Shown here: one piece after another, positions 3,180-60,329 of the stretch
How the letters are laid out: every line of letters starts with the position of its first letter
Numbering within the stretch: the stretch's first letter is position 1
Assembly: GCA_043228905.1 (NCBI GenBank)
Contig: JBHGNT010000008.1
Span: 7,874,001-7,938,000 of the forward strand
Source: Azolla caroliniana
Lineage: Eukaryota > Plantae > Polypodiophyta
Length of the DNA stretch: 64,000 nt
Direction: 5' to 3'
Notes under the pieces: generated by a model
Databases searched by the model: none
What the model was told of the DNA's origin: nothing
What the model saw: the letters and a program-made list of their open reading frames with translations, nothing else
Translations under genes and position numbers: made by a program

Positions 3180-3950
3180 TGGCAACTGAGTATAGAATGA
3201 TGGCAATGGAGGAGAGAACCCCGTCAGATTGAACAGTTACCGATGATGCTTGAAACGCACATAGAAGGCACTTGAGAATAGAGTGGCATAGAGAAGAGAA
3301 CCCCGTCAGATTGAACAGTTACCAATGATGCTTGAAACGCACAGTAGCGGCCCCTGAGTGAGAGTGGAAAAGAGAAGAGAACCCCGTCAGATTGAACAGT
3401 TACCAATGATGCTTGAAACGCACAGTAGTGGCCCCTGAGTGAGAGTGGAAAAGAGAAGAGAACCCCGTCAGATTGAATAGCTCTTTGATTATGCTTGGAA
3501 CGCACAGTAGCAACCCCTGAGTGTAGAGTGGCAAAGAGAAGAGAACCCCGTCAGATTGAACAGCTCTTTGATGATGCTTGGAACGCACAGCAGCGGCCCC
3601 TGAGTGTAGAGTGGCACAGAGAAGAGAACCCCCTCAGATTGAACAGCTCTTTGATGATGCTTGGAACGCACAGTAATGGCCCCTGAGTGTAGAGTGGCAC
3701 AGAGAAGAGAACCCCTTGAGATTGAACAACTCTTTGATGATGCTTGGAACGCACAGTAATGGCCCCTGAGTGTAGAGTGGCACAGAGAAGAGAACCCCGT
3801 CAGATTGAACAGCTCTTTGATGATGCTTGGAATGCACAGTAGTGGCCCCTGAGTGTAGAGTGTCACAGAGAAGAGAACCCCGTCAGATTGAGCAGCTCTT
3901 TGATGATGCTTGGAACGCACAGTAGCGGCCCCTCAGTGTAGAGTGGCGGC
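3180..3950. repeat. ~83-bp tandem repeat upstream of transposase copy 1
   Basis: About 9 copies of gagaagagaaccccgtcagattgaacagctctttgatgatgcttggaacgcacagtag..cccctgagtgtagagtggca. Degenerate precursors extend back to about 3020. Confidence 0.93.
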
Positions 3951-21814: not shown

Positions 21815-22680
21815 GGGAAATAGACCCGAAGTCTGCACTCTCTCCATTACGAGATGGTACGACAGTCCCTAGATCTCGTGCACATAGACATCAATGGGCC
21901 CATGCCAGAGCGATCACTAGGAGGCTCCTGGTACTTCATCACATTTGTAGATGACTGTACACGAAAAGGTTGGGCAAACTCCATCAAGTCCAAAGATGAA
22001 GCACTCAAGGTCTTCATTCGATAGATATCTCGGAAATAGACCCGAAGTCTGCATTCTCTCCACTACGAGATGGTACGACAGCCCCTAGAGCTCGTGCACA
22101 TAGACATCAGTGGGCCCATGCTAGAGCGATCACTAGGAGGCTCCCGGTACTTCATCACATTCGTAGATGACTATACACGAAAAGGTTGGGCAAACTCCAT
22201 CAAGTCCAAAGATGAAGCGCTCGAGGTTTTCATTCGATGGATATCTCGGAAATAGACCCGAAGTCTGCACTCTCTCCACTACGAGACGGTACGATAACCC
22301 CTAGAGCTCGTGCACATAGACATCGGTGGGCCCATGCTAGAGCGATCACTAGGAGGCTCCCGGTACTTCATCACATTCGTAGATGACTATACACGAAAAG
22401 GTTAGGCAAACTCCATCAAGTCCAAAGATGAAGCGCTCGAGGTTTTCATTCGATGGATATCTCGGAAATAGACCCGAAGTCTGCACTCTCTCCACTACGA
22501 GACGGTACGATAGCCCCTAGAGCTCGTGCACATAGACATCAGTGGGCCCATGCTAGAGCAATCACTAGGAGGCTCCCGGTACTTCATCACATCCGTAGAT
22601 GACTATACACGGAAAGTTTGGGCATACTCCATCAAGTCCAAAGATGAAGCACTCGAGGTCTTCATTCGATGGATATTTGA
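21815..22680 (+). repeat. Four tandem 216-bp (72-codon) copies of the integrase N-terminal segment in copia A
   Basis: Anchor gacccgaagtctgca at 21823, 22039, 22255 and 22471. Confidence 0.93.
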
Positions 22681-23189
22681 AGTGGAGAACCAATCGAGAT
22701 ACAGAGTGAAGACACTCCGATCCGATAACGGAGGTGAGTACACCTCTAGAGCAGTCAAAGAGTTCTTGTCCGGAAAAGGGATCCGACACCAAAAAACCGT
22801 TCCATATACACCCAATTCTTCAGCAAGTCGGACTGAAGTTGGAATTCTGAGCCGAGGCATTGTAGACAGCAGTGTACCTAATAAATCTGGCGCCATCACG
22901 AGCAATCAAGCTCGAAGTGCCACAGGCACTATGATCAGGCAAACAGCTGACCTACGATAGGCTCCGTATATTCGGATGCGAAGCCTACACATTCATTCCT
23001 AGGGACAAAAGGACAAAGTTGGCACCTCATGCAACGAAGTGCATATTTCTTGGTTATGGAACCGATGGGGACTTCCGCTACCTGCTATGGGACCCCGAGA
23101 ATAGGAAACTGATCCGGAGTAGTGACGTGGTCTTCAATGAAGACTCTATCTTCTCTCAGAGGAACCAACATAAAATAATTGTTAAGAAG

Positions 23190-37965: not shown

Positions 37966-38155
37966 CGTGGTGCCGCGTTGTCGTGAAGAAAACTGGCCAT
38001 AGGCGGAATCGGAGAAAAAGGCGCATGAACCGGCTCTTACATGGGTGGACGCGAGAATTGACATTTTGTACATAATTCATAATTAGGTCGGCTGATGTAA
38101 ATACTAGGTAGTACATATTTATTAGAGGATTGGTGTGTATCTCTGTCGAAAGGGA

Positions 38156-41100
38156 TGTTGAGAATCAACGCTCCGATTCACCTTCACCGCTCGGCCACAA
38201 CCGAGAAATCACGAATCAATGCAGCAGAAAATAGGAAACACAGAGAAAGACACGATAACACAGGGATTAACGTGGAAAACCCTATACGGGAAAAACCACG
38301 GGAGTGCAAGACTCCAAACCAAAACTATGCACAGAGAAATATACAATGGCGAGCTGCAAGGCGACGACCTTGAGCTCGCTATCCTCGCCACAGGCGGCGG
38401 TATTACACAGAGGCGTCGACCTCTCCCTCTCTCACGCTCTATCTCTCTCACGGCTGCTCTCTCTTCACTCCTCTTGAGTGGAAAAACAGAAAAATGAGTA
38501 GCGACATAAAACTGTTTGCCCTAAGTCATATTTATACACATATGACTTAGGGCTATTTACAACTATAGCCTCAAGGGCCCTTGGCAAACATATTCACAGA
38601 TATGTCCCCACATCCAGATCTCTCTCCGGGTACATTCGTCATCCGGCTCCGAAGCCGGGGTCTTCATCATCCGGTTCCGAAACCGCAACCGGGCTTGTCG
38701 TCATTCATCTCCGACATCCGACCATCCCATCCAAAAGGGACCGTAATCCCAACAAACTCCCCCTTCACTTCGGCATGGGATGTCTCTCCAATCCGATCCT
38801 CTTCCGGCATGCTTCCAGCTTGTCGGGTGTGAGCACCTTGGTCAGCATATCCGACCCGTTCTCGTCCGTGTGGATCTTCGTCAGCACGAACTCCTTGTCT
38901 TCTATCCTTTCCCGTATCCAGTGATATCTTCGCTGGATGTGCTTCGTCCGGGAGTGATATGCCGCGTTCTTCGCAAGGTGGATTGCACTCTGACTGTCGC
39001 AGTAGAGTCGGTACTCCTGCTGCCGGATACCGAGCTCTCTAATGAAGTCCTTCATCCATATTATTTCCTTGCCGGCTTCAACAGCCGCCATGTACTCCGC
39101 CTCCGTGGTTGACAACGCAACCGTCTTCTGCAGCCTCGACTGCCATGAAATAGCTCCCCCTGCATACGTCATCACATACCCTGATGTGGACCGGCTGGTA
39201 TCTGCATCAGCCGACATATCCGAATCGGTGAAGCCGTCGAGTTCGGGCTTACCGGAGCCGAATCGGAGGCACACGTTTGCCGTGCCCTTCAGGTATCGGA
39301 GTATCCATTTGACCGCGTTCCAATGCTCTTTGCCGGGATTGCTCATGTACCGGCTCACCACTCCGACTGCATATCCTATGTCCGGTCGGGTACACACCAT
39401 TGCGTACATCAAGCTCCCGACGGCAGAGGCATATGGTACTTTCATCATGTCCTCCTTCTCAGCCTTTGTCTTGGGGCTTTGCTTGCTGGACAGCTTGCAG
39501 TTTGCCGGGAGTGTCGACCCGACCGGTCTTGCTTCCGACATGTTGAACCGGTGAAGCACCTTTGTCACGTACTTCTCCTGTGACAACCACAACTGCTTCT
39601 TCTTCCAGTCCCGGATGATGTGCATCCCTAGTATTTGCCTCGCCGGACCCAGGTCCTTCATTGAGAAGGTTCGGTGAAGAGCCTTCTTCAGCATCCGTAT
39701 CTTGGCCTGGTCCCGTCCGACGATCAACATGTCGTCCACGTACAGGAGGAGTATTAGAAAGTCTCCTCCTTCGAACTTCTTCACAAACACGCAGTGATCG
39801 GACTGCGTTTTGTGGTACCCTTCGTCTGTCATGAAGGAGTCGAACTTCCGGTACCATTGCCGGGGAGCCTGCTTCAGACCGTAGAGGCTCTTCTTCAACC
39901 GGCATACCAGGTGCTCCTTCCCTTTCTTCTCGAATCCTTCAGGTTGCTGCATGTAGATCTCTTCTTCGAGGTCACCGTGAAGGAATGCCGTCTTCACGTC
40001 CATCTGTTCTACCTCGAGGTCCATGCTTGCCGCTATGCTCAGCACCGTCCGGATGGAGGTCATCTTCACTACCGGGGCAAATATCTCGTCGAAGTCGACG
40101 CCCTTCTTCTGCTGAAACCCCTTCACCACGATCCTGGCTTTGTATCTCGGGGGGTTTCCGGCATCTTCCGGTTTCAGCTTGAACACCCACTTGTTACGGA
40201 GTGCCCGTTTTCCTTTCGGCAACTCCACAAGTTCATATGTGTGGTTCTCATGCAGGGAATCCATCTCCTCCTGCATAGCACTTAACCACCTGCGGCTATG
40301 GGTGTCATGCTTCGCTTCTTCAAAGCTCTCCGGCTCCCCCTCGTCGGTTAGCAGCACGTGCTCTGGTTCCGGAAATCTCCGGGGAGCCCTTCTCTCTCTT
40401 AGAGGATATCTCCGTTCCGGAGCTTTGGTAACCGGTTCTTCCGATTCTTCTTCATCCGAATCCATTTCGGGATCGGGGCCGGTTCCGGTATCATTTTCCT
40501 CTTCTTCGGCCGGTTCTGTTTCTTCACCGTCTTCGGCCGGATCTTCGAGTGTTAACCGGTCCCTTGCCGGTCGGGACTGCTCCTCGTAGAGTTGATTCTC
40601 ACCGGCGACTTGGAGCTCTTCATCTTCTTCTCCGACTCCTAGTCGACGAGTGTCTTGTCCTCCATGAAGATGATATCTCGACTCCTGAATATCTTCTTGT
40701 CGACCGGGTCCCATACTCGGTAGCCGAACTCGTCGTCGCCGTAACCGAGGAATATGCATGGCCGGGTCTTTGGATCTAACTTTCCTCTCCGGTCCTTTGC
40801 CACATGCACGTATGCGAGACACCCGAACACCTTCAGATGCCGGTAGGATACTTCCCTACCGGTCCACACTCTCTGCGGCGTGTCTCCGTCCAAAGGTACT
40901 GAGGGTGATCTGTTTATCACGTATGTCGCCGTCGACATTGCCTCAGCCCAAAACCCCTTGGGTAATTCCGCATGCGCCAGCATACTCCGGACCCTCTCCA
41001 TTATGGTCCGGTTCATCCTCTTGGCCAGCCCGTTCAGTTCCGGCGTCTTCGGCACAATAAACTCGAGCCGGATTCCCTTCGAGCGACAGTACTCCGCGAA

Positions 41101-43467
41101 CTGCCCCCGGTATTCCCCTCCGTTATCCGCTCGTATCGCTTTCAGCTTCTTGCCGGATTCCCTTTCCACTCTCGCGTGGAGTTCTTTGAAGACGCACAAC
41201 ACTTGGTCCTTTGTCTTCAACGGTGCCGTCCACAGCTTCCGGCTGTGATCATCAATGAATGTTACGAAGTACTGGGCTCCACCATGTGACTTCGTTTCTA
41301 CCTGACACACATCGGTGTGCACCAACTCCAATGGTGCGCCACGTCTCGTCGGTGGCCTTGAGTGGAAGGAGGTTCGGTTTTGCTTACCGGCCAGGCAATC
41401 GGTGCACTTCTCCAGGTGCACACGCTTCACTGGAATAAGGTTGTCTTCTGCAAGCCTCTTCATCCCCGTCTCACTCATGTGGCACAGTCTCTTGTGCCAC
41501 AGCTCACCGGCAGTGTCGGCTGCCACGTTCAACTCTTCCGGACACAACCGGGCATTCATAAGGTACAGTGTGTTGACTTTCCGGGCCCGAGCCACTATCA
41601 GGCTCCCCTTGCTGAACTTCATTACGCCGTTCCGGATCCTACCTGTGTAGCCTTCATCGTCTAGCCTCCCGGCCGAAATCAGGTTCAATCGAACCTCCGG
41701 AACGTGTCGGACATCCTTCAGCAACATTTTTTATCCGGTCGAGGTTGTCAACCACACGTCTCCTATACCGGCAATCCGGCACGTACCTTCATTTCCCATC
41801 CGAACACAGCCATGCTCACCGACTGTGTAGGATGAGAAGTATCTTCTCTCCGGGGTCAGGTGGAACGATGCCCCGGAATCGACCACCCAGGTCGTCTCAT
41901 CGCCGGCAATGTTTAGTTCACCTTCTTCGGTGATGAGCATGATTTCTTCCTCACTTGCCGCGAGTGCCGTCGTTCCTTTCCGGTCCTGCCCTCGCCGATC
42001 CGGACCTCTCCGGCCAGTGGCTCCCCGGTATGCACCGTTTCTCTCCGGTGACTTCTTCGAATCGGTGTCGTCGGCTCCGTTGTCCTTTCGGTAATGCCGA
42101 CAATTCTTCCGGAAGTGCCCCGGCTTCCCACAGTGGAAGCATGTGGGTCTTCCTCTTGACTGCGACCGGGTCCCCGACTTCTCCCGTCTTTGCGGACTCC
42201 GGTTCCATTGTCTTCCCCGTTCCGATTCGGTAAGCAGCGACTTCGAGTCGGAGGCCGGTTCTTTATCTCTCCGATGCGCTTCTTCGTTCAAAATACTTGT
42301 CTTTACCCTTTGTACGGACAAGTTATCTTCCGTGCAGGAGGTGCTGAGAGTCACCACCAAGTTCTCCCAGCTTTCCGGCAATGTACACATCAGAATGATG
42401 GCTTGCATTGCATCCTCCAGCGGGAACTTGATCGCCGCAAGCTGGTTCACGAATCCCATGAACGTGCTTACGTGTTCCACCATACTCTCGCCGTCCCGGT
42501 ACTTGAGGTTCACTATCTTCCTCATCGGGGAGGTCCGGTTCAACGCATTCTTCCTCTCGTAGGGGCCCGACAGCTTCCGCCACATCTCATATGCGTTGAT
42601 GTCGTTCGCCACATGTTGTAGAACGCTCACGTCGACGTATTGCCGAATGGTTGCAACGGCTTTCCGGTTCAGAAGCCTCCATTCCTACTCAAGTACCCCC
42701 TTCGGTATTTCCGACCTGTCAATCGGTTCGTACAGGTCCCGAACAATCAGAAGATCCTCCATCTTGATCTTCCAGTCGGCGTAATTCTGCGCATTCAGCA
42801 CCATCATCCCCGGCTGCCCGCTGCCGCCGCCTTCCATTTTCTGCAGCAGCCTCGCTCTGATACCACTTTGTTGAGAATCAACGCTCTGATTCACCTTCAC
42901 CGCTCGGCCACAACCGAGAAATCACGAATCAATGCAGCAGAAAATAGGAAACACAGAGAAAGACACGATAACACAGGGATTAACGTGGAAAACCCTATAC
43001 GGGAAAAACCACGGGAGTGCAAGACTCCAAACCAAAACTATGCACAGAGAAATATACAATGGCGAGCTGCAAGGCGACGACCTTGAGCTCGCTATCCTCG
43101 CCACAGGCGGCGGTATTACACAGAGGCGTCGACCTCTCCCTCTCTCACGCTCTATCTCTCTCACGGCTGCTCTCTCTTCACTCCTCTTGAGTGGAAAAAC
43201 AGAAAAATGAGTAGCGACATAAAACTGTTTGCCCTAAGTCATATTTATACACATATGACTTAGGGCTATTTACAACTATAGCCTCAAGGGCCCTTGGCAA
43301 ACATATTCACAGATATGTCCCCGCATCCGGATCTCTCTCCGGGTACATTCGTCATCCGGCTCCGAAGCAGGGGTCTTCATCATCCGGTTCCGAAACCGCA
43401 ACCGGGCTTGTCGTCATTCATCTCCGACATCCGACCATCCCATCCGAAAGGGACCGTAATCCCAACA
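38156..43467 (-). mobile_element. Copia D: young full-length Ty1/copia inside the outer gypsy 5' LTR
   Basis: Perfect TSD AGGGA. 599-bp LTRs at 38156-38754 and 42869-43467 with about 5 differences seen. PBS(iMet) at 42854-42865, PPT at 38757-38764. Confidence 0.97.
38765..42837 (-). pseudogene. Copia D gag-pol
   Basis: Gag, CCHC, DSGAS protease, integrase, YVDD RT and RNase H. Stops at 42685, 41731 and 40639, plus a frameshift near 40600. Confidence 0.93.
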
Positions 43468-43560
43468 AGGGACAGGGAATAAAGCGATTTGACTAGGGAA
43501 GAACGGTCTCCCCTTTGCGAACTATTTAAGGAGGAAGAGAAGGGAGAAAAGGGATCGCGT

Positions 43561-46500
43561 TGTCGCGTTGTTACGCCCGTACGTGTAGAAAGGGGCGGGA
43601 CCACGGGGGTCTTGGACCGAGGGGCGAGAGAGAGAGAGACAGAGAGAGAGATTCACCGACACGTAGAAGCGAGAAAGAGAGATATAGAACGTAACACTTA
43701 ATTATAATGGCAAGAGATAATTTACAAACTCCGACAGTTACAACCAACAAAGCGGCGACGGGCCCGACACGGGGACCCTACTCACGCACACCGACGACAG
43801 TCACAGGACTCAAAGAAACAAAAGGGGAAAGGGAGAGACTCTGCTGGAAGCACACGGGCTGTCCATGAAGTAGAGGCAGCGACCTCCCGACAGCCGCAGA
43901 GAGCGACGATCCTAGTCGAAGAGAGAGCTCCGCCTTCTGTTCTGCAGCAACACTTTTCTTCCTCCTCGCGCGCGATACCCGTTTTCCCTTGTCCTCTTTC
44001 CTTTATTCCCTGTCCCTCTTTCCTTTATTCCCTGTCCCTCTGATCGGGATATGCACAATCCCCCCTTATAAAATGCGCGTGGCTTAGTATTTACATCCAC
44101 CGGTTCGTGTACAAAATATCAAGTCACGCGTCCATCCGTGTAAGGGTCGGATTACGCGCTTTCTCTCTGATTCCGCCTATGGCCGGTTTTCTTCATGACA
44201 TCCACCCCCACCAAAGCACGCATCCACCGGTATGCGCCAGAGACGGGTAGATATTGAAGAAACCCGGCGTCACTCGTTGCTCTCCGATTCTCCGCCGGAC
44301 CCGAACTGATTGTCGTTGTCGCTCCGGCTCGCAGGCTCCGGCTCGTCTTCGAACCGCTTTTTGAAAGATTTGATTCGCTTTCCGGCCACCGGCACCGCTA
44401 ACTGTGTCCCTTCGAGTTCCGCGAGGTGGTACGTGCCATTGCCGTTTGCGCTCGTCACCATGTAGGGCCTGAACCATCTCCTACCAAACATTCGCACCGC
44501 CTTGTGCTGATTGTCGAGGCTGCTGTCGTATACCAAGACCCAGTCGCCTTCCTCGATCTTCTTTGGTTGCAACTGGTGCGTCCGGTTGAACTGGGTCTTG
44601 TTCCGCTCCCTTGCCGCTCGCAGCTTTTCCTCCGCCTGTATCACGTCCTCCAGCCTCCGCTCGAGTTGCCGAATCCGCGCCGCCAGCAACTCCTCCCGGC
44701 TCATTTCGTCCTTCCAATCTACCGCCGCCCACGAAGAAACTGTCCGTTCCACCGGCATGATCGGCTTTTGTCCATACATTAGCTCTGCCGGCATAAACCC
44801 TGTCACCGAACTATGCGTAGTCCGGTCCGCCCATAGCATGCACGCACCAACGCCTTTACAATCAGTCCGTGCCCGCATTCCACCTTTCCGTTCGCCTCCA
44901 GATTGTACACCGTGGTGAGGGAGAGTTTGACACCTAGCCGGTCGAACAACTCCTCGGCCTCCCGCGCATTCAGCTCTCCCCGGTCTGCCACGATCCTCCC
45001 GACGCACCCGTACCGACACACTACTTCTTCGATCAGGAACCGGCATACCGCAGCGGTTGTCTTGCTTTGCAGTGCACGGCCTTCCACCTGGCTCGTTAAG
45101 TCTTCCCATGCAAGCACCAAGTATCGCATCTGTCTTACCCCCATCGGCATCGTCACCAAGTCCACCATCCACTTGAAATGGACCGTAGGCGGGTAGGTCG
45201 GGTGACGCTCGTCCCGGTGTCGGACTACAGAGTGTATCTGACAGCTTTTGCAAGTCGTTACGAACCGATGCATGTCCTAGTATAGCCCCAGCCACCAGTA
45301 CTTCTCCTTCAGCTTCTCGAACGTGGCCCACGTTCTGTGGTGTCCGGCCCATGGGCTCTCGTGGAATGCCGCCAATAGTTTCCCCTGTTCTTCTTTCTTT
45401 GCCACTACTCGGAGTGGGATGCTGCTTCTCTTCTTTGGGTGTTTCCATATGCACCCGTCCCGTAGGAAGAATCGGTACGCCTTCCTCCGTATCCGGCTCG
45501 CCTCCTCTCTCGCCCATGCTGCGTCCGGCGTCATCGTCCGTAGGAACCGCCCGATTTGGAGCCACTCCTCGTCGTACCTACTTTCGTCAAATTCGTTAAG
45601 CGCTGGAGTGTTCCCTTCCCTCGTCGTTACATTAGCCGACCTGAAGAAGTCCTCGCCGACTTCTTCGTCTTCCGAAACCATGCCGTCTTCGTCATTGAAC
45701 CTTGCCCTCGAAAGCATGTTGGCCATGGCATTGTCCTTTCCGGAGATGTGCCGTATCTCCGGGTTCAGGGACTTAATGTACGCTATCCACCGGAGCATTG
45801 CTAGGTCCGGCGTCGCGCATCCGGAAACCATGCCGAGTATCGGCAGGCAGTTCGTCTCGATAATCACCTCCGTCCCGATCAGATAATCCTTGTCGGCCTT
45901 GATTGCCGAAATGACACCCCAAAGTTCGCGCTTAACTTGGGCGTACCCTCGCTGCCGCTCGCTCAATACCTTTGCCCCGAACCGGACCGGGAATTGTATG
46001 CCACCCTTGTCCTCCTGACTGATTACCTAGCCGATCCCGGTTGGGCTGGTGTCCACCGTTACGCAGATGGGAACATCCTTGCCGTACACCCCTTTACGGA
46101 GAGCCGGCGCTGCCGTAAGCGCCTCCTTTAGTCTCCGAACCGACTCCGTGTGCTCCGTCCTCCACTCAAAGCTATGCCCCTTTTTCAATAGTCCGTAGAG
46201 GGGTTCTGCAACATGTGCGTAGTGCGGGATCCAGATGTGCTAGAACGTGCATGCCTCGAAGAATCTGCGGACCTCCGTGACCGACCCGCAAACGTTCCTC
46301 ATCGCGGAGATGGCCTCTACCTTTGCCAGAGACGGTTTCCTACCGTAAGGCCCGCACTGGTGTCCGACCACCAAGATCTCCGACTGTCCGAAGGCCGACT
46401 TTTCCCTAGAGAAGGTGAGCCTCGCGCGCTCTAGTCTCTACAGCACCTTCTCGCAGTCATTGATGTGGGACGCCACGAAATTCCGACATCCGTCCGGCCC

Positions 46501-49500
46501 GATTGCCTCGTCCCTTTTCTCCACCAGGCATCCCTTGATCGGGATCTCGTCTAAGAACGGCATGGTGATGTCCGGGATACAATCCCTGAGCACTTTGTTC
46601 ATCGCGTTCACCATGTGAGCCACTGAGTTCGTCCCTCCTTGTGGCAGGGTACACATCCGCACCAGGCCGAGAGGAGTCCGCATCATCGTAATGTCTCTGC
46701 TCTCCACGGCTAGTTGGAACTGATCGTACCCCAAGTACAGATCACCGACAGAATAGATCGACCTTCCAGCGAAGGCCTCCGCGAACTCGTCTATGGTCGG
46801 TCTGATCCCTGCATTACGGATGGTCACCTTGTTGACCAGTTGTAGGTCCTGGATGAAGCGCAACGTGCTGTTCTTCTTCGGCACCGTAAACCACCAATTC
46901 GAGTACGGGGCACTCGACGGTTTGAGGACGCCCATCTCCACCTTTTGCTTTAGGAGCTCCATCAACTTCGGGATGTAAGCTCTTGGCACCGGAATCGGCT
47001 TGAGATTCCACGGTACATGCGGTACCGTGAAGATCACCATCAGTTCGACAACTATCGGGTCTACGCACCCGATATTCTCCGGTGAGAATGCGAAAGCCTT
47101 CTCGTGCCTCCCGAGCATTCTCCGAAACCGGTCCTCCTCCGCCGGCAGTAGGAAGTCGCCCCCACCGACCTTGAGCTCCCGTAGCGTTATGTCGGTGAAC
47201 CGGTGCCGTATGCTAGCCGGATTTCGTAAACTTGGGACCGACACGACCCCTTTTATCCGCTCCTCGCTGCCCTCCGGCAAGGGTGCCGCGACTGGCCTCA
47301 CCTTCTGGTCCACAGTCTTGTATTTCGTATCCACGCGGGCCGTCCGATCCGACCCGATCCTTTCCCCAAAGTCTGCGATGACTTCGTACATTCCCATTGA
47401 CCCCACCGGAATGGTCCAATCTTCCCTAAGGTCTTCACCGATCACCTTTCGTAGTTCGCCCAAGGTGTCGTCAAAAGAGACCGCTTCCACGGCGCCGCTG
47501 ATGTCCTCGTCGGGGAAGAGGACTCTACATCCCCTGAGCCGCTCCCCCGCTCGCTTGCTCTCCCGGCCGTTGACGCCAGTCATAGTACAACCTCCGTAGT
47601 CGGAGAACCAAGACTTCCTACCAATGGTACAAGTCTTCTTCCGTACTGTACATTTGTGGGGTTGTTCCCGGGAGTTCGGACTATCGCGGCCCCACGCCTG
47701 GATAGCCCTCCCTAAAAATCCCCTCGGGTTTCGCTGCCGAGGGCCTCGCGATTACGCTCGTGGTTTGGTCGCACCGTTAGGAACTGGACCGAGTGACGCC
47801 CGTCCTGGATTTTGACTCTTGCATAGGCTGAACCGTTGTCCAACACCTTGGTCTCCATCCGTGCTGCCGTGATATATGGCTCTCCTAGTATAACCGGATG
47901 CGAGGACGTCTCCTGCACGAAGAAGTGCTGGTCGATCTCGACATCGCCGATTTTCACCCGTACGTTCGGACCGGCCCCAAGTAGTTCTTCCATGGCGCGC
48001 GTCGCTGCCCGTATCTTCCAGCCATGCTTGGTGTTGATCGGCCATTTACCCTTCTTGTAGAAATCCATGGACATCTGGTTGATTTCGGATCCATGGTCCC
48101 AACACCACCACCGGTTCCAGAACGTTGCCGATCTGTACAGGGGTTTCCGTAGTCGCCTTGGCCCAATGCGGCTTCGTGTAGTGGCTTCCCGCCAGCTCAT
48201 CTTCCAAGGCTCCGTCTTCTAGGTGCGTGGTCCGCACTTCCACCGGCTTCTCCGGTTCCGGCTCCGTCGAGAGCCTCTTCCCCTTCACCAAATCTACGAT
48301 AGAGTCGTGGAACTCCCTCTTGGCGATTCCCAGCACCTCCTGCAATGACAACTCCACTTTGCTGTAGAGGATACGTTCCTCCAAGACCTTTCGCAAGTCT
48401 GTGGTCCTTTCGATCTCGGTGCTCAACCGAAACCCTGCCTCCTTCTTTCCGTCTGGTGCGCCCGGGTTGCCGGCACGGATCGGTTTCGGTCCGAACTGGG
48501 TCTCATACCTCGGGGGGCCAACCCCTCCGGCCTTTCCTGCCCGTTTGTCCTCCACCAGAAGCTCATAGTTCTGGCAAGCGGCTTCTACGAAGCCCGTGTT
48601 CTCTTCGACCGAATCGTCCCAACCGGTGACCTCCTAGACTCGCTGTTCCGCGCGGTCTGCCTCTTCCTTCCTCAGCCGAACTCCGGAGAGGCCTTCTAGC
48701 ACTAGCGGGCAGAATCCGGAGTCCTTCGCCTTTCGGGTCTCATCACCCCCGACCCGAATTCCCGCCGATATTGAGTAGTTAACGGCTTCGACGTGCAGTG
48801 CCGCGGCCTCTTCCATCAATCTCTTCATTCCGCCGCGCCCCGTATTCAGTTCCAGGGCTCTCCGGGTCTCGCTCGTGTGCACCCGTCCGTTCCAGAGGTA
48901 CAACACGTTGGTCCTGAGCGCGTCGGAGAAATCCGCGCAATCCCTCCGAATGTGACTGATCGGGTCACACCACATGCACCGCTGCCTCTTCGGGCCTGTG
49001 CGATCTGCAGGTCGCGCACCATCTCTGTTAGCTCCTCGAGAACCGCTCCTCTGGATAGGTCTCTGACCACGTCGTTCGATGCCGACCCCGACTCCGGCCA
49101 GATTTGGGTCTCTTCCTTCCTCCCAGTCGGCACCAAAACCGGCTCCTCAAGCCTCCTCCCCGGAACCGGCTCCGACCCCGACGTCCTTCTGTCGCTCCAA
49201 TCGCGCCGTTTGTCGAAACGGATGCAAACCCGTTTTACCACGGCCCAGTCCGTCGTGAGCCCTTCGTCCGTTTCCAATAGGGGCCCCACCTTTTCCCTGT
49301 CGAGCGCAACCACCGACTTGACAAACAACAGTACTCGACTTGTTTCGAGCACCGTCCGGTCCAGCGTCGACAACCGCGCGAACCCTTTTCCGGGGCTTTC
49401 CACCCACGCCATGAAGTCCCGCCTTGATAGCCGGAGCGAGTCGTCAAACCCGTACTTCTCGAGGAGCTGCAACTCGAACTCCTCCCAAGTCTGGCATCCG

Positions 49501-50442
49501 GGCAACACCTCGAGCACCTCCGCATGGATGCCCGGCGTCACCACCCGAGGGAATTCGGACAGCTACCTGTGCACCGAGATATCCCTCATGATCATTTCGG
49601 CCCGGTAAGCCTCCAAATAACTTGTGGCGTCTTTCCCTCCGAAACGGCCTATAGATCCGACGATCGATTCAATGGCTCTGTCGAGCGTACCCGTTCCCTC
49701 ACGAGCGCTCACCAGCCGGTCGACGGCCACCGCCATTGCCTCTGCTAGCTCCGATCCCCTCATCTTTCGACTCCTTTGCCGCCCTTTCATGTCGGGTTCA
49801 CCAAATATGTCGCGTTGTTACGGGCGTACGTGTAGAAAGGGGCGGGATCACGGGGGTCTTGGACCGAGGAGCGAGAGAGAGAGAGACAGAGAGAGAGATT
49901 CACCGACACGTAGAAGCGAGAAAGAGAGATATAGAACGCAACACTTAATTATAATGGCAAGATATTACAAACTCCGACAATTACAACCGACAAAGCGGCG
50001 ACGGGCCCGACACGGGGACCCTATTCACGCACACCGACGACATCACACGACTCAAAGAAACAAAAGGGGAAAGGGAGCGACTCTGCTGGAAGCACACGGG
50101 CTGTCCACGAAGTAGAGGCAGCGACCTCCCGACACCCGTAGAGAGCGACGATCCCAGTAAAAGAGAGAGCTCTGCCTTCTGTTCGGCAACAACGCTTTTC
50201 CTCCTTCTCGCGCGCGATACCCGTTTTCCCTTGTCCTCTTTCCTTTATTCCATGTCCCTCTTTCCTTTATTCCCTATCCCTCTGACCGGGATACGCACAA
50301 TCACCCCTTAATAAATGCTCGCGGCTTAGTATTTACATCCACCGGTTCGTGTACAAAATATCAAGTCACGCGTCCATCCGTGTAAGGGCCGGTTTACGCG
50401 CTTTCTCTCCGATTCCGCCTATGGCCGGTTTTCTTCATGACA
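43561..50442 (-). mobile_element. Inner tRNA-Trp-primed Ty3/gypsy, inserted antisense in a relative's 5' LTR
   Basis: LTRs 43561-44200 and 49808-50442 (TG..CA). PBS tggtgaacccgacatgaa at 49786-49803 and PPT at 44201-44210. Decayed gag-PR-RT-RH-IN at 49763-44270. Flanks GCGT/GTGC. Confidence 0.95.
47678..47721 (-). promoter_or_regulatory. Candidate -1 ribosomal frameshift signal (inner gypsy)
   Basis: G_GAT_TTT at 47721-47715, then TAG within a 6-nt spacer, then stem GGGCTATC/GATAGTCC. The -1 frame is open into RT ORF 46438..47583. Confidence 0.7.
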
Positions 50443-50843
50443 GTGCGTTGGCGAGGACGAAGTGTTGCTGTAGAACCAAGTACCGAGCTATCTCTCCTCC
50501 GATCGTCGTTCTTTGTGGGTGTTGGGAGTTGGCTGCCTCTGCTTCGTGGACAGCCCGTGTGCTTCCAGCAGAGGCTCTCCCCCCCTTTTTTTTGTTTCTT
50601 CGATTCGAGTTTCGCGTCGTCTGTGTGCGTGAGTAGGACCTCGTGGCAGGTCCATTACCGGTTTGCCGGTTGTAACTGTTTGAGTTGTAAGCTACGGATT
50701 ATAGTAATCGGATTCCTGTTTCTTGCTCTTGTTTTCCTTTTGTGTATCTGCAACTCTCTCTCTCTCTCTCCCTCTCTCCTTGGTCCAAGACCCCCGTGGT
50801 CCCGCCTCTTCCTACACGCGAACGCGAAACTTCATGACATAAT

Positions 50844-50861
50844 TGGTGAACCCGACGTGAA
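50844..50861 (+). promoter_or_regulatory. Primer binding site complementary to cytosolic tRNA-Trp
   Basis: TGGTGAACCCGACGTGAA lies 4 nt after the LTR end. It is the reverse complement of TTCACGTCGGGTTCA-CCA, the plant tRNA-Trp(CCA) 3' end as recalled. Confidence 0.85.
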
Positions 50862-52979
50862 CAAGCGGCAAAGGAGTCGGAAGATGAGGGGTTCGGAGCT
50901 AGCAGAGGCAATGGCGGTAGCCGTCGACCGGCTGGTGAGCGCTTGCGAGGGGATGGGTACCCTCGACAGAGCCATTGAATCGATCGTCGGCAACATAGGC
51001 CGATTCGGTGGTAAGAATCCCACAAGTTATTTGCAGGCTTACCGGGCCGAAATGATCATGAGGGATATCCCGGTGGACAGGCGGTTGTCCAGATTCCCTC
51101 AGGTGGTGACGCCGAGCATCCACGCAGAGGTGCTCGAGGTGGTGCCCGGATGCCAGACTTGGGAGGAGTTCGAGTTGCAGCTCCTCGAGAAGTACGGGTT
51201 TGATGACTCACTTCAGTTGTCGAGGCGGGACTTCATGGCGTGGGTGGAAAGCCCCGGAAAAGGGAGGAACACGTCGGCGCTCCTCCAGGAGTTTGAAAAA
51301 CGATTCGCGTGGCTGTCGACGCTGGACTGGACCGTGCTCGAAACGAGTCAAGTACTACTGTTTGTCAAGTCGGTGGACACACTCAACAGGGAAAAGGTGG
51401 GTCCCCTATTGGAGACGGATGAAGGGCTCACGACAGACTAGGCCATGGTAAAACGGGTCTGCAGCCGTTTCGACAAACGACGCGAGTGGAGCGACGAAAG
51501 CTCGTCGGAGTTAGGACTGGTCCCGGCGAGGAGGCTCGAGGAGCCGGTATCGGTGCCAGCCGGTAGGAAGGAAGAGACCCGAATTTGGCTGGAGTTGGGG
51601 TCGGCGTCGAACGACGTGGGTAAAGGCCCATCCGGAGGAGCGGCTCTGGAGGAGCTGACACAGATGGTGCGCAACCTGCAGATCGCACAGGCTCGGAGAG
51701 ACAGCGGCGAACAATCTCGCGACCGGAGGCCACCGGCTGGGTAACGGTGCATGTGGTGTGACGCGATCAGTTACATTTGGAAGGATTGCACGGATTTCGC
51801 TGACGCACTCAGGACCAACGTGGTGTACCTCTCGAACGGGCGGGTGCACACGAGCGAGACCCGGAGAGCCCTAGAACTAAATACGGGGCGCGACGGAATG
51901 AAGAGGTTGATGGAAGAGGCCGCAACACGGCATGTAGAAGCCGTTAACTACTTAGTGTCGACGGGAATTCGGGTCGGCGGTGATGGACTCCGGATTCTAG
52001 CCGCTAGTGCTAGAAGGCCTCTCCGGAGTTCGGCTGAAGAAGGAAGAGGCGGACCGCGTGGAATAGCAGGTCCAAGAGGTTAGTGGATGGGACGATCCGG
52101 TTGAAGAGAAAACGGGCTTCGTAGAAGCCGCTTGCCAAACGGTGGAAGACAAACGGGCAGGAAAGGCCGGAGGGTCAGTCCCCCGCAGAGGTACGAGACC
52201 CGGTTCGGACCGAAACTGACCGGTGCCGGCAACCCAAGCGCGCCGGATGGGAAGAAGCAGGTGGGGTTTCAGTTGAGTACCTAAATCGAGAGAGCAACAG
52301 ACCTACGGAAGGTCCTTGAAGAGCGGACCCTCGACAGTAAAGTGGAGCTGTCGTTGCGGGAGGTGCTGGGAATCGCCAAGAGGGAGTTCCACGACTCCAT
52401 CGTAGACTTGGTGAAGCGGAAGAGGCTCTCGGCGGAGCCGGAACCGGAGAAGCCGGTGGAGGTGCGGACTGCGCACTTAGAAGACACGGCCCTAGAAGAA
52501 GAGTTGGTGGAAAGCCACTACGCGAAGCCGCATTAGGCTAGGGCAACTACGGAAACCCTTGTGCGGATCGGCGACGTTCCGGAACCGGTGGTGGCCTTGG
52601 TAGACCATGGATCCGAAATCAACCTGATGTCCATGGATTTCTACAAGAAGGGTAAATGGCCGATCAACACCAAGCATGGGTGGAAGATACGTGCGGCGAC
52701 GCGTGCTACGGAGGAGCTACATGGTGCGTGCCCAAATGTACATGTAAAGATCGGTGACGTCAAGATAGATCAACATTTCTTCGTGCAGGAAACATCCTCG
52801 CACCCGGTGATTCTCTGCGAACCGTACATTACGGCAGCACGCATGGAGACAAAGGTGCTGGACAACGGTTCGGCGTACGCGCTCGTCAAGAGCCAAGACG
52901 GTCGACATTCCGTCCAGTTCATGACCGTACATCTGAACCATGAGAGGAATCGCGAGAGCCTCGGCGGCGAAAACCGAGG

Positions 52980-53023
52980 GGATTTTTAGAGAGGGCTATC
53001 AAGGCATGGAGCCGTGGTAGTCC
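52980..53023 (+). promoter_or_regulatory. Candidate -1 ribosomal frameshift signal (outer gypsy)
   Basis: G_GAT_TTT at 52980-52986, TAG at 52987, stem GGGCTATC (52993-53000) / GGTAGTCC (53016-53023). The -1 frame is open into ORF 53190. Confidence 0.7.
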
Positions 53024-56000
53024 GGACGTATCGGAAGAACCCCACACATGTACAGTAGGTAGGAAGTTTTGGTTCTGCGAAAACGGAGGTTGTACTATAG
53101 CCGGCGTCAGCGGCCGGGAGAGGAAGCGAGTAGAGGAGCGGCTTAGGGGATGCAGAGTCCTCGCCCCCGAAGAAGAAATCAACGACATCGTGGATGCGGT
53201 CTCTTTTGACGACACCTTGGGTGAGTTGCGAAAGGTGATCGGTGAAGAACTTAGAGAAGACCAGACCGTTCAGGTTGGTTCGATGGGAATGTACGAAGTC
53301 ATCGCGGACTTCGGGGAAAGGATTAGGTCGGATCGGACGGCCCGCGTTGATACAAAGTACAAGACTGTGGACCAGAAGGTGAGGCCAGTCGCGGCACCCT
53401 TGCCGGAGGGTAGTGAGGAACGGATAAAAAGGGTCGCGTCGGACCCAAGTTTACGGAATCCGGCTGGCATAGGGCACTGGTTCACTGACATAACACTACG
53501 GGAGCTCAAGGTTGGCGGGAGGACAGGTTTCGGAGAATTCTTGGAAGGCATGGAAAAGCCTTCGCGTTCTCGCCGGAGGAGATCGGGTGCGTGGACCCGA
53601 CGATCCTCGAACCAATGGTGATCTTCACAGTACCGCATGTACCGTGGAATCTCAAACCGATTCTGGTGCCGATAGCTCGCATCCCGAAGTTGATGGAGCT
53701 GCTGAAGCAAAAGGTGGAGATGGGCATCCTCGAACCGTCGAGTGCCCCATATTCGAATCGGTGGTTTACGGTGCCGAAGAAGAACGGCACGCTGCGCTTC
53801 ATTCAGGACTTGCAACCGGTCAACAGGGTGACCATCCGTAATGCAGGAATCGGACCGACCATAGACGAGTTCGCAGAGGCCTTCGCTGGAAGGTCGATCT
53901 ATTAGGTCGGTGACTTATACTCGGGGTACGACCAAATCCAGCTAGTCGTGGAGAGCAGGGATATCACAACGATGCGAACTCCTCTCGGCCTAGTATGGAT
54001 GTGTACCCTACCACAAGGCGGGACGAATTCGGTGGCACATATGGTGAACGCAATGAACAAGGTGTTGAGGGACTGCATCCCGGACATCACCATGCCATTC
54101 TTGGACGACATCTCAATAAAGGGGTGTCCGGTGGAAGATGTGGACGGAACTGTCGGGCGAGACAGATGCCAGAGGTTCGTCGTGAACCACATCAACGACT
54201 GCGAGAAGGTGTTGCAGAGGCTCGAGAGCGTATGACTCACCTTCTCTGGAAAACAATCGGCGTTCGGGCAATCAGAGATCTTGGTGGTCGGACACCAGTG
54301 CGGGCCTTACGGTAGGAAACCATCTCCGGCAAAGGTAGAAGCCATCTCCGCAATGAAGGATGACTGCGGGTCGGTTACGGAGGTCCGCAGATTCTTGGGG
54401 GAGTGCGCGTTCTACCACATCTGGATTCCGCACTACGCACATGTTGCGGAGCCGCTCTACGGGCTATTGAAGAAAGGGTGTAGGTTCGACTGGAGGACGG
54501 AGCACACAGAGTCAGTCCAGAGGATGAAGGAGGTGCTTGTTGCGGCATCGGCTCTCCGTATAGCGGTTTACGGCAAGGGAGTCCCTATCTACGTGACGGT
54601 GGACACGAGCCTGACCGGGATCGGGTGGGTCATCAATCAGGAGGACGAGAATGGTGTATGATTCCCGATCCAGTTCGGGGCGAAGGTATTGAGTGAGCGG
54701 CAACGAGGATATGCCCAAGTCAAGCGCGAACTATGGGGTATCGTTTGGGCAGTCAAGGCCGACAAGGACTATCTGATCGGGACGGAAGTGATCATCGAGA
54801 CGGATTGCCTGCCGATACTCGGCATGGTTTCCGGATGCGCGACGCCGGACGTAGCAATGCTCCGGTGGATAGCATACATTAAGTCCCTGAACCCAGAGAT
54901 ATGGCACATCTCCGGAAAAGATAACGCCATGGCCGACATGCTTTCGAGAGCGAGGTTCAACGATGAAGACAACATGATTTCGGATGACGAAGAAGTCGGT
55001 GAGGACTTCTTCAGCTCGGCTAACGTGACGACGAGGAAAGGGGACACTCCGGCGCTTAACGAATTTGACGAAAGTAGGGACGACGGGTATTGGCTCCAAA
55101 TCGGAAGGTTCCTACGGGCGATGACGTCGGACGCAACGTGGACGAGAGAAGAGGCGAGCCGGGTACGGAAGAAGGTGTACCGATTCTTCCTACGGGACGG
55201 GTGCATATGGAGGCACCCAAAGAAAAGAAACGACATCTCGCTCCGAGTAGTCGCAAAGAAAGAAGAATAGGAGGAATTAGTGGCGGCATTTCACGAGAGT
55301 CCTTGGGCTGGGCACCGCGGAACGTGGGCCACATTCGAGAAGTTGAAGGAGAAGTACTAGTGGCCGGGGCTATATCGGGACGTGCATCGGTTCGTAATGA
55401 CTTGCGAAAGCTATCAGATGCACTCCGTAGTCCGACATCGGGACGAGCTACACCCGACCTACCTGCCTATGGTCCATTTCAAGTGGATGGTAGACTTGGT
55501 GACGATGCCGATGGGAGTAGGATAGATGCGATACCTGGTGCTTGCGCGGGAAGACTTAACGAACCAGGTGGAAGGTCGTGCACTACAGAACAAGACAACT
55601 GCGGCGGTATGCCGGTTCCTGATCGAAGAGGTATTGTGTCGGTACGGGTGCATTGGGAGGATCGTGGCGGACCGGGGAGAGTTGGATGCGCACGAAGCTG
55701 AGTTGTTCGACCGGCTAGAGGTCAAACTTTCCCTCATTATGGTGTACAATCCGGAGGCGAATGGGAAGGTAGAACGCGCGCACGGGCCGATCGTAAAGGC
55801 ATTCGTGCGTGCATGCAGAGGGCAGGTCGGGAATTGGCCGCGGCTCCTTCCTTACGCACTATGGGCGGACTGAACTACGCACAGTTCGGTGACAGGGTTT
55901 ATGCCGGCAGAGCTGATGTATGGACAGAAGCCGATCATGATGGTGGAACGGACGGTTTCTTCGTGGGCGGTGGTAGATTGGAAGGACGAGATGAGCCGAG

Positions 56001-59000
56001 AGGAGTTGCTGGCGGCGCGGACTCGGCAACTCGAGCGGAGGCCGGAGGACATGAAACAGGCGAAGGAAAAGCAGCGGGCGGCAAGGGAGCAGAACAAGAC
56101 CCGATTCAACCGGACGCACCGGTTGCGCCCAAAGAAGGTCGAGGAAGGCGACTGGGTCTTGGTATACGACAACAACCTCGACAATCAGCACAAGGCAGTG
56201 CGAAAGTTCGTTAGGAGATGGTTCGGGCCCTACACAGTGATGAGCGCGAACAACAACGGCACGTACCACCTCGCGGAACTCGACAGGACACGGTTAGCGG
56301 TACCGGTGGCCGGGAAGCGGATCAAAGCGTTCAAGAAGTGGTTCGAAGACGAGCCGGAGCCGGCAAGCGAGAGCGACGACAATGATTGGTTCGGGCCCGG
56401 CGAAGAATCGGAGACTGATGAGTGAAGCCGGTTTTCTTCGGCATCTACCCGTCTCTGGCGCATGCCGATGGATGCGCGGTTTGGTGGGGGTGGCTATCAC
56501 GAAGAAAACTGGCCATAGGCAGAATCGGAGAAAAAAACGCATGAACTAGGTCTTACATGGGTGGACGTGAGAATTGATATTTTGTACATAATTCATAATT
56601 AGGTCGGCTGATGTAAATACTAGGTAGTACATATTTATTAGAGGATTGGTGCGTATCTCTGTCAAAAGGGACAGGGAATAAAGTGATTAGACTAGGGAAG
56701 AACGGTCTCTCCTTTGCGAACTATTTAAGGAGGGAGAAAAGGGATCACGCATTGGTGAGGACGAAGTGCTGCTGCAGAACCGAGTGCCGAGCTCTCTCTC
56801 GTCCGATCATCATTTGCTGTGGGTGTCGGGAGTTCGCTGGCTCTGCTTCGTGGATAGCCCGTGTGCTTCCAGCAGAGGCTCTCCTCCCCTTTTTTTTGTT
56901 TCTTCGAATCGAGTTTCGCGTCGTCTGTGTGCGTGAGTAGGACCTCATGTCACGTCCATTACCGGTTTGCTGGTTGTAACTGTTCGAGTTGTAAGCTACG
57001 GATTATAGTAATCAGATTCCTATTTCTTGCTCTTGTTTTCCTTCTGTATATCTGCAACTCTCTCTCTCTCTCACTCTCTCCTTGGTCCAAGACCCCCATG
57101 GTCCGGCCTCTTCCTACATGCGAACGCGAAACTTTGCGACATCGTGTTCTTGGCCTAGAAGTCTGTGCATGCCTTAAGTCATTTTAATAGTGTCGCTATC
57201 TTCTCTTTTTTCTTTTTTTCTTTTTTCATAACGGTTACATAGAATATTCTTTTTACACTACTCCGAGGATTTCCCGGCTTTGTCTTGCCCGACGGAGAAC
57301 GGGTTAGGTGGCATAGGTCCCAGATAAGGTTTAAGGTGAAACCCATTCAGTTTTTGTTGTAACACTTCCCCGCCCAACGTGCCAAGTTGAAACATATCCT
57401 GTTCCGCGCCCACTATCCAGTACGGGCCTGTCCAGCAGAATCTTAATTTTCCTGGCATATGCCCCATGCGTGTTTGGAAAACTAATACTGCTTTCCCAAC
57501 CGTAAAATCTTTTTCCCGCGCATCCTGGGGTTAGTCCACAAATGCTTTGCGTCGCTGCTGTTCCTGCTCCAATATGGCCATACTGCGCAACCATGTTTCG
57601 CCTAGCTCTAGCAGTTGTTGTAGCCGTATTTGCTCAGATTTGCCCTCTAGTAGCCGGGCTCGTACTTGAATCCGCAGACTGGGTACCTGGAATTCGACTG
57701 GCATCACGACCTCCAGCCCAAATGCTAGCTTGAAAGGCGTTGCTTGTATGCGAGTCTTATAGCTGGTACGGTATGCCCATAACACACTATGCAATTTGGT
57801 ATCCCAATCCATTCTGTTCTCATTGACTATCTTTTTTATGATAATTTGTAAGGTTTTGTTCGTGGATTCTGCCAAGCCATTTGCCTGTGGGTAATATGAC
57901 GTACTTTATTTGTGAACCAAAGTGTAATGTTGGGTTAGTTCGCTGATGACCGTATTCAGAAAGTGACTCCCTTGGTCACTAATGAGCCGAAATGACACCA
58001 GATGTGTTCGTAAAGGAATTTTGCCATGACTCTCGCGGTATTCTCGTGTAGTGGTTTTGCTTCTACCCACTTGGTACAGTAATACGTGGCCACCAAGATA
58101 TACTTATTGCCTATTCGAGCGGTTGTCGGGGTGAAGGGTCCCACAAAATCTAGCCCCTAGTTTCGGAAAGGATCCATTAGCAACACTGGTTGGTGTGGCA
58201 TTCTCCCAACTTCCGTGGCATGGCCCAGCCATTGACATAAATCACACTGTCTACAATATTCATACGCATCCTTTTGCGTAGTCGGCCACCAAAGTCCCGC
58301 TTGCTAAATTTTCTAGGCCGTAACATCGCCCGCGTAATGTCCTCCCGCTGTTCCATAGTGGGCTTCGCGTAGAACCCACGTCCTTCTCATCTTGCCGTAT
58401 TCCGTGCCTCCCGATGTTGTCACTCTCTTTGTGGTATAGGATGTCTTCTACTAAATAGAAGTTTCGACTTCGTATATATTCCCCCAAAATTGCATAAAGG
58501 CCGGTATAGATTCCCCAAAAATCTTTGTGATTGTCCGTTGAAATGTAGCCGACGCTATCTTTAGCCCGAACATCATGACGATTGCGATATAGACGCCCCA
58601 GTCTGTCACGAACGTCGTCTTCTCTTGGTCGTCGTGGTGCATGCCTACTTGATTGTATCCACTAAAGCCATCTAAACAGTTGTACCTGTCATGCCCTGCG
58701 ACGACGTCCAATACGCTGTCAGGGAACGGTAAAGGAAATGCATCGGTAATGGTTATGGCATTCAATTTCCGGTAGTCCACGCATACACGTATTTTGCCAT
58801 TTTTCTTTGGGACAACTACTATTGAGCTTATCCATGTAGCTTGTTTGACTGGTCGAATGAATCCGGCCTTGAGGAATTTGTCAATTTCTTCTTTTACGCG
58901 AGCCGCGTAATTCGGATTCATGCGGTATCAACGCTACTGGACTGGTTTCGCATCGGTCACTAAATTGATCTTATGTTGATGGAAATTCCGATCCAACCCC

Positions 59001-60329
59001 TTCATGTCCTCATGGGACTAGGTGAACACATCTTCATACTTCCTGAGTAGTGCTATTATCGCGTCTCTCTGATCTGGCAGTAATTCTTTTGCGATGGAGA
59101 GGAATCGGGGTTCTGACGTCGTACCCACGTTTACTTCTTCTAGGGCTGAGGCCATGACTCGTCGTGAAATTTCCATTTCCCTGTCAAACACTACCCGTGC
59201 TCTGCTTAGTTCTAATATTGACTCCGGGTCTGGTTCGTAAGCCTCGTCGTGGAGCGCAGCGGGCGTGGCGTATTCCGTCACGGCTTCTATGACGTTGATT
59301 TTGAATAGCGGAATGATCTGGGGGTGCTCGTCTAAGTATACTTCTAATTCTGTATCATCCAAGCCAAGCAGCATATTTATATCTTCCGCATATAACGGTG
59401 TGATGCCCTTGGGTTGTGCTGCAAATTCCTCTGTTGGTACGTGAACCTCGGTGCGTCCGTGTCGAAAGCTGATGCACTTATGTTGCCAGCTCTGTTTGAT
59501 ATTCGTTGAACGAAGCCACGGTCTACCAAGCAGCATAGGATACGCTCTTGGGGCGTCGAGGGCGAGGACCACCACTGAGATGTCGAAGCAATGTCCTCCA
59601 ATGATAATGCTTAACTTGCATATTAAGCCTAAAGGCCTTACGGAGTGGGTATCCGCCATGTGAAGCCAAAATGGCCAAGCTTCCCATTCTGAAATTCCCA
59701 ATTGTTCGCATGTGTTGGCGCTAATTACATTGACGCCAGGGCCGTCATCGATTACGCATCCTGTGATTTCCTCACTATGTAATATCAACTTAATAGCCGG
59801 ATTGTGGTGATCCACCATTGATGGTCCGGGTTGATGTCTGTAAAATTGGCGAAGACGCCTACCCTAGGTTTGCCCGTTATGCGATTCTCCACGGCCTGGC
59901 GGAACCGTGGGACTAGTTGCAGTAGCTTCTACATGGTCAATGTTATCTCGCAGCTTGCAGTGCTTGCCATAAGGAATCTAGAGATATAACATCTTCCTCC
60001 GAAGGCTCCACATTGTTCGCAGATTCCTTCCGCATGCGTTCTGTATTTGCCACGTTCGCTTTTTCTACCCATGCTTGGGCCGTCTGACGTAGCTCATCTT
60101 GCGCGGCCCAATCAACATTTTTTGTTTGCTATCGTGTTGTGACTTGCTGGACTTCCGCCATAATCGTATTGACGGTGGGCCCCTTGCCTTTGCGTAGTGG
60201 ACATTGTATGGCATAATGTCCTAGCTATTGGCAAACAAAGCAATGGACGCTAGATTCGCCTTTCTCGGCAACTGGTGGTGCGTTCCAATCCCTAGGTGTG
60301 ACTTGCTCCTCCAGGTCCTGATTCATTCT

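Follow-up and report, generated by a model that had tools for sequence, protein, structure and literature searches.

How does a long terminal repeat (LTR) retrotransposon obtain its reverse transcriptase (RT) when the frame that encodes Gag and protease (PR) closes before RT begins? The question is raised by a stretch of 64,000 nucleotides (nt) from Azolla caroliniana (assembly GCA_043228905.1, contig JBHGNT010000008.1, positions 7,874,001 to 7,938,000 of the forward strand; to be referred to as the window), which carries two copies, A and B, of a Phygy-like Ty3/gypsy retrotransposon. In both copies the heptamer G GAU UUU is followed by a stop codon, a 6-nt spacer and an 8-base-pair (bp) stem. 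Judging from sequence comparisons, this junction very probably works as a programmed −1 frameshift, from the Gag-PR frame into the pol frame, in the Phygy-like lineage. No reading other than a −1 shift accounts for the frame relation, the heptamer, the covariation of the structure and a −1 frame that is open across diverged families. Both window copies are dead relics of this conserved junction design. Their features are as follows, in window coordinates.

37979..50839 (+): 5′ LTR of copy A, interrupted by two insertions, a copia element (38156-43468) and copy B
43561..50442 (−): copy B, an entire nested element of the same family as A, with LTRs 94.6% identical
47656..47721 (−): frameshift cassette of copy B, with the heptamer at 47715-47721 and the TAG stop at 47712-47714
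47701-47708 and 47678-47685 (−): arms of stem 1, copy B
47690-47695 and 47656-47661 (−): arms of predicted stem 2, copy B, 6/6 pairs
50844..50861 (+): primer-binding site of copy A, complementary to the tRNA-Trp 3′ end
50881..52989 (+): Gag-protease frame of copy A, a single frame with stops inside, from alignment with the Gag-PR of an unbroken relative
about 52537-52911 (+): protease domain of copy A, identified from relatives
52980..52986 (+): slippery heptamer G GAU UUU of copy A, including the last two codons of the protease frame; the same heptamer is found in 25/34 dereplicated junctions
52987..52992 (+): Gag-PR stop (TAG, 52987-52989) and 6-nt spacer of copy A; a stop directly after the heptamer is found in 25/34 junctions
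52993..53000 (+): predicted pseudoknot stem 1, 5′ arm, copy A, from covariation
53006..53011 (+): predicted pseudoknot stem 2, 5′ arm, in the loop of copy A; 4/6 pairs remain in this decayed copy
53016..53023 (+): predicted pseudoknot stem 1, 3′ arm, copy A, from covariation
53040..53045 (+): predicted pseudoknot stem 2, 3′ arm, copy A, from covariation; beyond the segment covered by an earlier, sequence-only reading of the window
52980..56425 (+): pol of copy A (linker of ~120 codons, RT, RNase H (RH) and integrase (IN)), beginning in the −1 frame; broken
56495..57141 (+): 3′ LTR of copy A, with 91-92% identity to the pieces of the 5′ LTR

Copy A is the outer one, because copy B sits nested in its 5′ LTR. 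The two are homologous to each other (81% alike), and both are decayed. The sequence-only reading had described a protease frame ending GGG GAT TTT TAG in both copies, with the 6-nt spacer and the 8-bp stem behind it, and this description is confirmed at the coordinates of A and B. An A/G difference in the stem was said to keep the pairing; the pairs are U-G and U-A, so pairing is retained, yet the change is one-sided. The −1 frame was also said to be free of stops into RT. This holds fully for copy B, where an open reading frame (ORF) at 46438-47751 runs through RT (Pfam RVT_1) and the pol of an unbroken relative aligns from the heptamer. In copy A, however, the open stretch covers the 125 codons up to the pol anchor and extends to ~53519, where the frame is broken ahead of the RT core. 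Similarly, gag and PR of the outer copy do lie in one frame, as a relative aligns in a single frame over 50881-52986, but stop codons are found within it. Pfam gave no match for the decayed protease of the window, and relatives were therefore used for its identity. The copia element inserted beside copy B in the 5′ LTR of copy A (38156-43468, minus strand) has 99% identical LTRs and a 5-bp target duplication.

Within the window, an 11-mer count is not above chance (2 seen and 1.27 expected, with 1 mismatch). For this reason, and because the two copies are homologous, the evidence was drawn from other families. A 22-mer covering the heptamer, the stop and the first stem arm has 628 exact matches in the 523-Mb genome and none in a reversed control. 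Two diverged pol protein queries retrieved two young families from the same genome, whose pol ORFs have 1241 and 1158 codons. In 58 of 60 loci of these families (some places having been fetched twice), pol is in the −1 frame relative to protease, and the anchor is absent in the other 2. The protease frame ends with G GAU UUU and TAA or TAG in nearly all of them. Intact copies in which PR and RT share a frame had been named by the sequence-only reading as an observation that would count against it; the young, unbroken families are −1. In the window's own decayed family, the −1 relation is seen in 32/41 scorable loci, with 19/60 lacking an anchor. Among 80 metagenome loci, 15 are without one anchor, and 61 of the 65 with both anchors are −1, while 3 are +1/−2 and 1 is in frame. 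Loci L138 and L187 of this set have other frame relations, but contain indels and stops and are interpreted as decayed.

The decay of both window copies would suit an old inactivating indel that has been passed on among dead copies. However, the same frame break is present in several young-family copies with LTRs 99-100% identical and unbroken frames, and in relatives down to 41-46% protease identity. The young-family loci, the metagenome loci and the recently transposed copies refute this explanation, and its probability is negligible.

The pol frame is free of stops from the heptamer to the pol anchor at RT (120-156 codons) in 29/31 representatives. In comparison, the two other frames over the same stretch are stop-free in 0/62 cases, with 10.5 stops on average. 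Third codon positions are the most changed in 10/10 sister pairs compared over this stretch. Upstream, the pol frame closes as near as 3 nt before the heptamer (L136, L147 and L166), and therefore the crossover is confined to the heptamer. The linker that separates the pseudoknot from the RT anchor (~100-130 codons; 53050-53350 in the window, and its homologs) shows protein-like evolution and has no Pfam match.

The pol ORF is long and self-contained once it has begun, and could in principle have a translation start of its own, at an internal AUG or on a subgenomic RNA. The position of the first pol-frame Met, however, ranges from codon 3 to codon 111. Separate translation would moreover leave the heptamer, the fixed spacer and the openness of the frame up to the heptamer unexplained, and we regard it as highly improbable.

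The signal itself was compared over 34 representatives, obtained from 69 junctions by dereplication at 85% identity; 15 metagenome loci without an anchor, L193 (junction deleted) and L200 were left out. The heptamer is GGAUUUU in 25 of the 34, GGAUUUC in 3, GAAUUUU and GGUUUUU in 2 each, and GGGUUUU and AAAUUUU in 1 each, with canonical slippery variants in L177 and L194. The stop directly 3′ of the heptamer (25/34) is TAG in 12 junctions, TAA in 8 and TGA in 5. Stem 1 aligns almost without gaps in a sequence-only MAFFT alignment of the 34 junctions, and 94.9% of its cells are paired, as compared to 81.9% after shuffling and 26-43% in slid controls. Two-sided changes are found in 36 cells (9.2 in the shuffled sets) and span 7/8 pairs, and none of 500 shuffles reaches either the pairing or the two-sided-change count of stem 1.

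The sequence-only reading treated the stimulator as a simple stem. Stem 1 does covary, but a second helix had been missed, and the structure is revised here to a predicted pseudoknot. Predicted stem 2 joins a purine tract in the loop to a partner tract located 10-16 nt beyond stem 1. Its score is 15.7 with own partners, 12.2 with swapped partners and 10.2 after shuffling, and 0/20,000 permutations reach the own-partner score. In L175, L178 and L194 this helix is wholly rewritten with the pairing kept. Together, the two stems have the predicted layout of an H-type pseudoknot. Plain folding yields stem 1 and an inner 3-bp helix, a method that is unable to show pseudoknots. In a strict search for contiguous helices, 25/34 junctions beat their own shuffles. 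Among 30 copies of the window's family, the heptamer is kept in 25, stem 1 in 29 and at least 5/6 pairs of stem 2 in 27.

The shift might also be real but driven by the U-run and the stop alone, the pseudoknot serving packaging or dimerization. The slippery site of pea enation mosaic virus (PEMV) by itself gave a basal level of shifting in the experiments described in PMC4737148. On the other hand, spacer length is conserved (6 nt among −1 families, 5 nt in a +1/−2 clade; see below) and falls within the 5-9 nt typical of stimulators, and the pseudoknot is kept in families without an adjacent stop. In L160, L164, L174, L177 and L178 the protease-frame stop is 1 to 21 codons past the heptamer, and the structure is still ~6 nt away. 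A shift driven by the U-run and the stop alone is thus rated very unlikely.

Another explanation is that splicing of an intron brings Gag-PR and RT together in some transcripts, with the U-run and UAG serving as a 3′ splice site. UUUUUAG in the window's family does resemble an acceptor, Ogre elements splice at the same boundary according to the REXdb description (PMC6317226), and in several gene models from liverworts PR is fused to pol and the junction is absent. However, the position of the AG after the heptamer varies from +2 to +7, covering every phase, and 4/31 cases have no AG within 7 nt; the stop is TAA or TGA in 13/34 junctions; and the linker, stop-free in the pol frame, evolves like protein. 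An Ogre-type junction has a non-coding, stop-bearing spacer and conserved splice sites, whereas here the spacer is open in 29/31 and no AG is fixed. Weakly pointing the same way, no joint or indel at the site was listed in poly(A) reads of a related organism, ~32-36 deep there; these reads come from three runs of one study, are on both strands, are mostly under 90% alike and have low depth. On copy A, the reads show a single joint (53221-53289), with ends other than GT..AG and away from the shift site. Reads on a young family fell almost wholly on gag, outside the junction, and are uninformative. Taken together, splicing is very improbable as the source of RT.

Four Riccia gene models (P0015, P0018, P0031 and P0115) join protease to pol without the junction region, possibly by introns predicted over the frameshift.

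Several observations weigh against a −1 frameshift. Most of the metagenome loci come from one sample series, and the relatedness of the families inflates the significance of the shuffles and swaps. In 12 loci without an adjacent stop the heptamer was set by pattern, which favors the motif. G GAU UUU is non-canonical, as only the A-site tRNA can re-pair fully. No stop follows the heptamer directly in 9/34 junctions, 9/34 failed to beat their shuffles in the strict helix search, and Rfam gave no match at E ≤ 1 for four loci.

What the sequences show is the frame relation, the heptamer and its position, the covariation of two helices, a −1 frame that is open and protein-like from the heptamer to RT, and the presence of this layout in recently transposed copies. 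Folding of the pseudoknot in the cell, shifting by ribosomes, its efficiency and the contribution of the stop codon are what we infer from it. Ribosomes translating Gag-PR would be held up when GAU UUU occupies the P and A sites and the pseudoknot lies at the mRNA entry channel. Most would terminate at the adjacent stop and release Gag-PR, while a minority would slip back by one base and produce Gag-PR-RT-RH-IN. In that case the protease would match Gag in amount, with scarcity limited to RT and IN. The two products proposed by the sequence-only reading, Gag-PR and Gag-PR-RT-IN, are supported by the frame relation, the heptamer, the covariation and the open frame.

The element is a Ty3/gypsy LTR retrotransposon, with LTR ends TG...CA and the domain order Gag-PR-RT-RH-IN. 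The domain 5′ of the shift site is an aspartic protease with the D-x-G motif; Pfam Asp_protease_2 is matched in 13/23 members, under the curated cut-off (best E 6e-05), and the best PDB profile match is Ty3 Gag-Pol (E 0.003). No chromodomain and no additional RNase H were found at E ≤ 0.05 in one unbroken pol (1199 aa). The primer-binding site (50844-50861) matches genes of the genome that ARAGORN annotates as tRNA-Trp(CCA). Exact 4-bp NCGN target-site duplications are present in 15/40 fetched loci, the other 25 having no LTR pair, unresolved ends or a mismatch. Riccia, Calypogeia and Adiantum are the sources of the closest named protein relatives. According to the REXdb description (PMC6317226), the non-chromovirus Ty3/gypsy lineage Phygy is marked by a tRNA-Trp primer site, a 4-bp NCGN duplication and no extra domain. 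The present lineage bears these marks, and its interior is likewise filled by the coding region; compared with REXdb Phygy by described features, it appears to be Phygy-like. Its elements are 6.7-8.1 kb long as compared to 7.7-10.0 kb for Phygy, a range taken from another species.

A tRNA-Trp pattern has 50 matches genome-wide, with tandem arrays of ~1.2 kb spacing at G000:C8:17801960-17818959, C5 ~10.11 Mb and C16 ~5.0 Mb; the tRNA in these arrays is the primer tRNA of the retrotransposon lineage. Gag-PR bears a weak DUF4100 match before the protease.

G GAU UUU is the slippery heptamer of RCNMV (red clover necrotic mosaic virus). It is also a tested −1 site in PEMV, where a nearby stop aids it, and occurs in four further umbraviruses, all of which use plant ribosomes; in PEMV, RCNMV and barley yellow dwarf virus (BYDV) a stop is located at the site or 3 nt after it, as in the umbravirus, dianthovirus and luteovirus signals treated in PMC4737148. 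These three viruses combine a bulged stem-loop, which makes a long-range contact to the 3′ end, with a spacer of 5 nt (same source). Here the structure is a local, predicted H-type pseudoknot in a retrotransposon, with a 6-nt spacer and the partner of the loop only 10-16 nt downstream. In the gag-pol of Rous sarcoma virus the shift follows the protease, which is inside Gag, a single-shift layout like that of the present element. Pseudoknot-stimulated −1 shifts between protease and RT are described for the pro-pol junctions of mouse mammary tumor virus (MMTV), human T-cell leukemia virus (HTLV) and Mason-Pfizer monkey virus (part of PMC12789967). The heptamers and hosts of the retroviruses are different, however, MMTV and HTLV need two shifts, and the element here is a plant Ty3/gypsy without env. 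Pseudoknot-driven −1 shifting, and shifts after the protease in retroviruses, are thus known already.

Among plant elements, Ogre and Retand (Tat) also break expression after the protease, with GAG-PROT followed by RT-RH-INT. Unlike the present case, the spacer of Ogre is spliced, Retand has one in-frame stop, and both have an extra RNase H. In the lineage table of REXdb, no plant lineage is entered with overlapping Gag-PR and RT frames, the post-protease break appears only in Ogre and Retand, and the overlap in Tcn1, Selgy and SIRE is between GAG and PROT (all from sections of PMC6317226). The polyprotein organization of Phygy is entered there as 'not determined' (supplement file 3). Plant retrotransposons are mostly single-ORF, with the Gag:Pol ratio set by splicing or stop codons, in the account of PMC5580714, and the passage on plants in a 2016 recoding review gives the separate-frame elements of a 2003 survey as all +1 (PMC5009743). 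No description of this junction signal was found in searches of the open-access literature, a scope that leaves aside Gao et al. 2003, Repbase and subscription journals; the accessible portions of PMC7466625, PMC12786077, PMC5580714 and one Chlamydomonas preprint contain none.

A sister clade shows a different frame relation. In L171 and L172, pol is in the +1/−2 frame, and a search of the own genome with their pattern gives 118 matches at ≤1 mismatch, as compared to 0 in a control.

Sister family loci: L171:2498-2569, L172, and L201-L240 and L264-L293 (own genome), with AG GUU UUU, a 5-nt spacer and a predicted pseudoknot

The +1/−2 relation is found in 17/20 loci chosen by the pattern and in 24/30 chosen by protease similarity alone (4 without anchor and 2 broken), two sets that overlap. 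AG GUU UUU is present in 25/26 scored loci of the latter set. The LTRs are at least 98.6% identical in 10/20 full-length loci, up to 100%, and both frames (about 736 and 1154 codons) are unbroken in 4/20; transposition with the +1/−2 layout has therefore been recent. In the own-genome family, a stop closes the −1 frame after two codons. In a tree of 30 pol segments, from which 8 representatives were left out (anchor missing or motif filter failed), the clade of L201 and L171 (support 100/100) is nested among −1 families. Both pseudoknot helices are kept, with a spacer of 5 nt, one base shorter.

The A-to-U change from GAU UUU to GUU UUU would be what the A-site tRNA-Phe needs to re-pair after a −2 shift. 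AG GUU UUU is the −2/−1 site of arteriviruses (PMC7618472, in part), and −2 shifting was optimal in vitro with spacers 1-2 nt shorter than those for −1 in the experiments reported in PMC3458567. The sister clade resembles the arterivirus nsp2TF site in this octamer, and the own-genome family also in the immediate −1-frame stop (relevant sections of PMC7618472 and PMC5009743). In contrast, the arterivirus shift needs proteins and yields an accessory product, while the sister clade has a predicted pseudoknot and its shifted frame is the essential pol. The cases of −2 shifting named in the 2016 review, in the part on this subject, are phage Mu, arteriviruses and Trichomonas virus 1 (PMC5009743). 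A +1 shift in the sister clade is possible, and could occur at UUU U in L171. However, the own-genome family has UUU G at this position, and a 3′ pseudoknot fits backward slippage. From sequence comparison, we consider it reasonably likely that the lineage makes RT by a pseudoknot-driven −1 shift and that one branch switched to −2, with the loss of a spacer base and the change from GAU UUU to GUU UUU.

Elsewhere in the window, a young copia element (14614-20034, minus strand) has LTR stretches that are 100% identical, and its polyprotein is split only by one in-frame stop, between the ORFs 17873-19456 and 15101-17872. A remnant of a distant gypsy-type RT (58454-59863, minus strand; Pfam RVT_1) has 23% identity to the Phygy-like pol. 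Tandem arrays are located at 668-2064, 3099-3947, 12886-13795 and 21811-22758, with units of 20, 83, 41 and 216 nt, respectively. The ORF 2050-2886 (minus strand) adjoins the first array and gives weak helix-turn-helix matches.

For this lineage, the junction would fill the 'not determined' entry of REXdb with a specific and testable signal, in a bryophyte lineage of high copy number, and suggests that liverwort and moss gene models carry false introns at this point. The 34 junctions are natural variants of one pseudoknot, and L160, L164, L174, L177 and L178 are natural controls for the role of the stop codon. If the proposal for the sister clade is true, an essential retroelement polymerase would be expressed there by a natural −2 frameshift driven by RNA structure, and evolution would have provided a test of the mRNA-tension model. 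The shorter spacer would be paired there with the change of frame, as predicted in vitro, so that the tension model becomes testable on natural cassettes.

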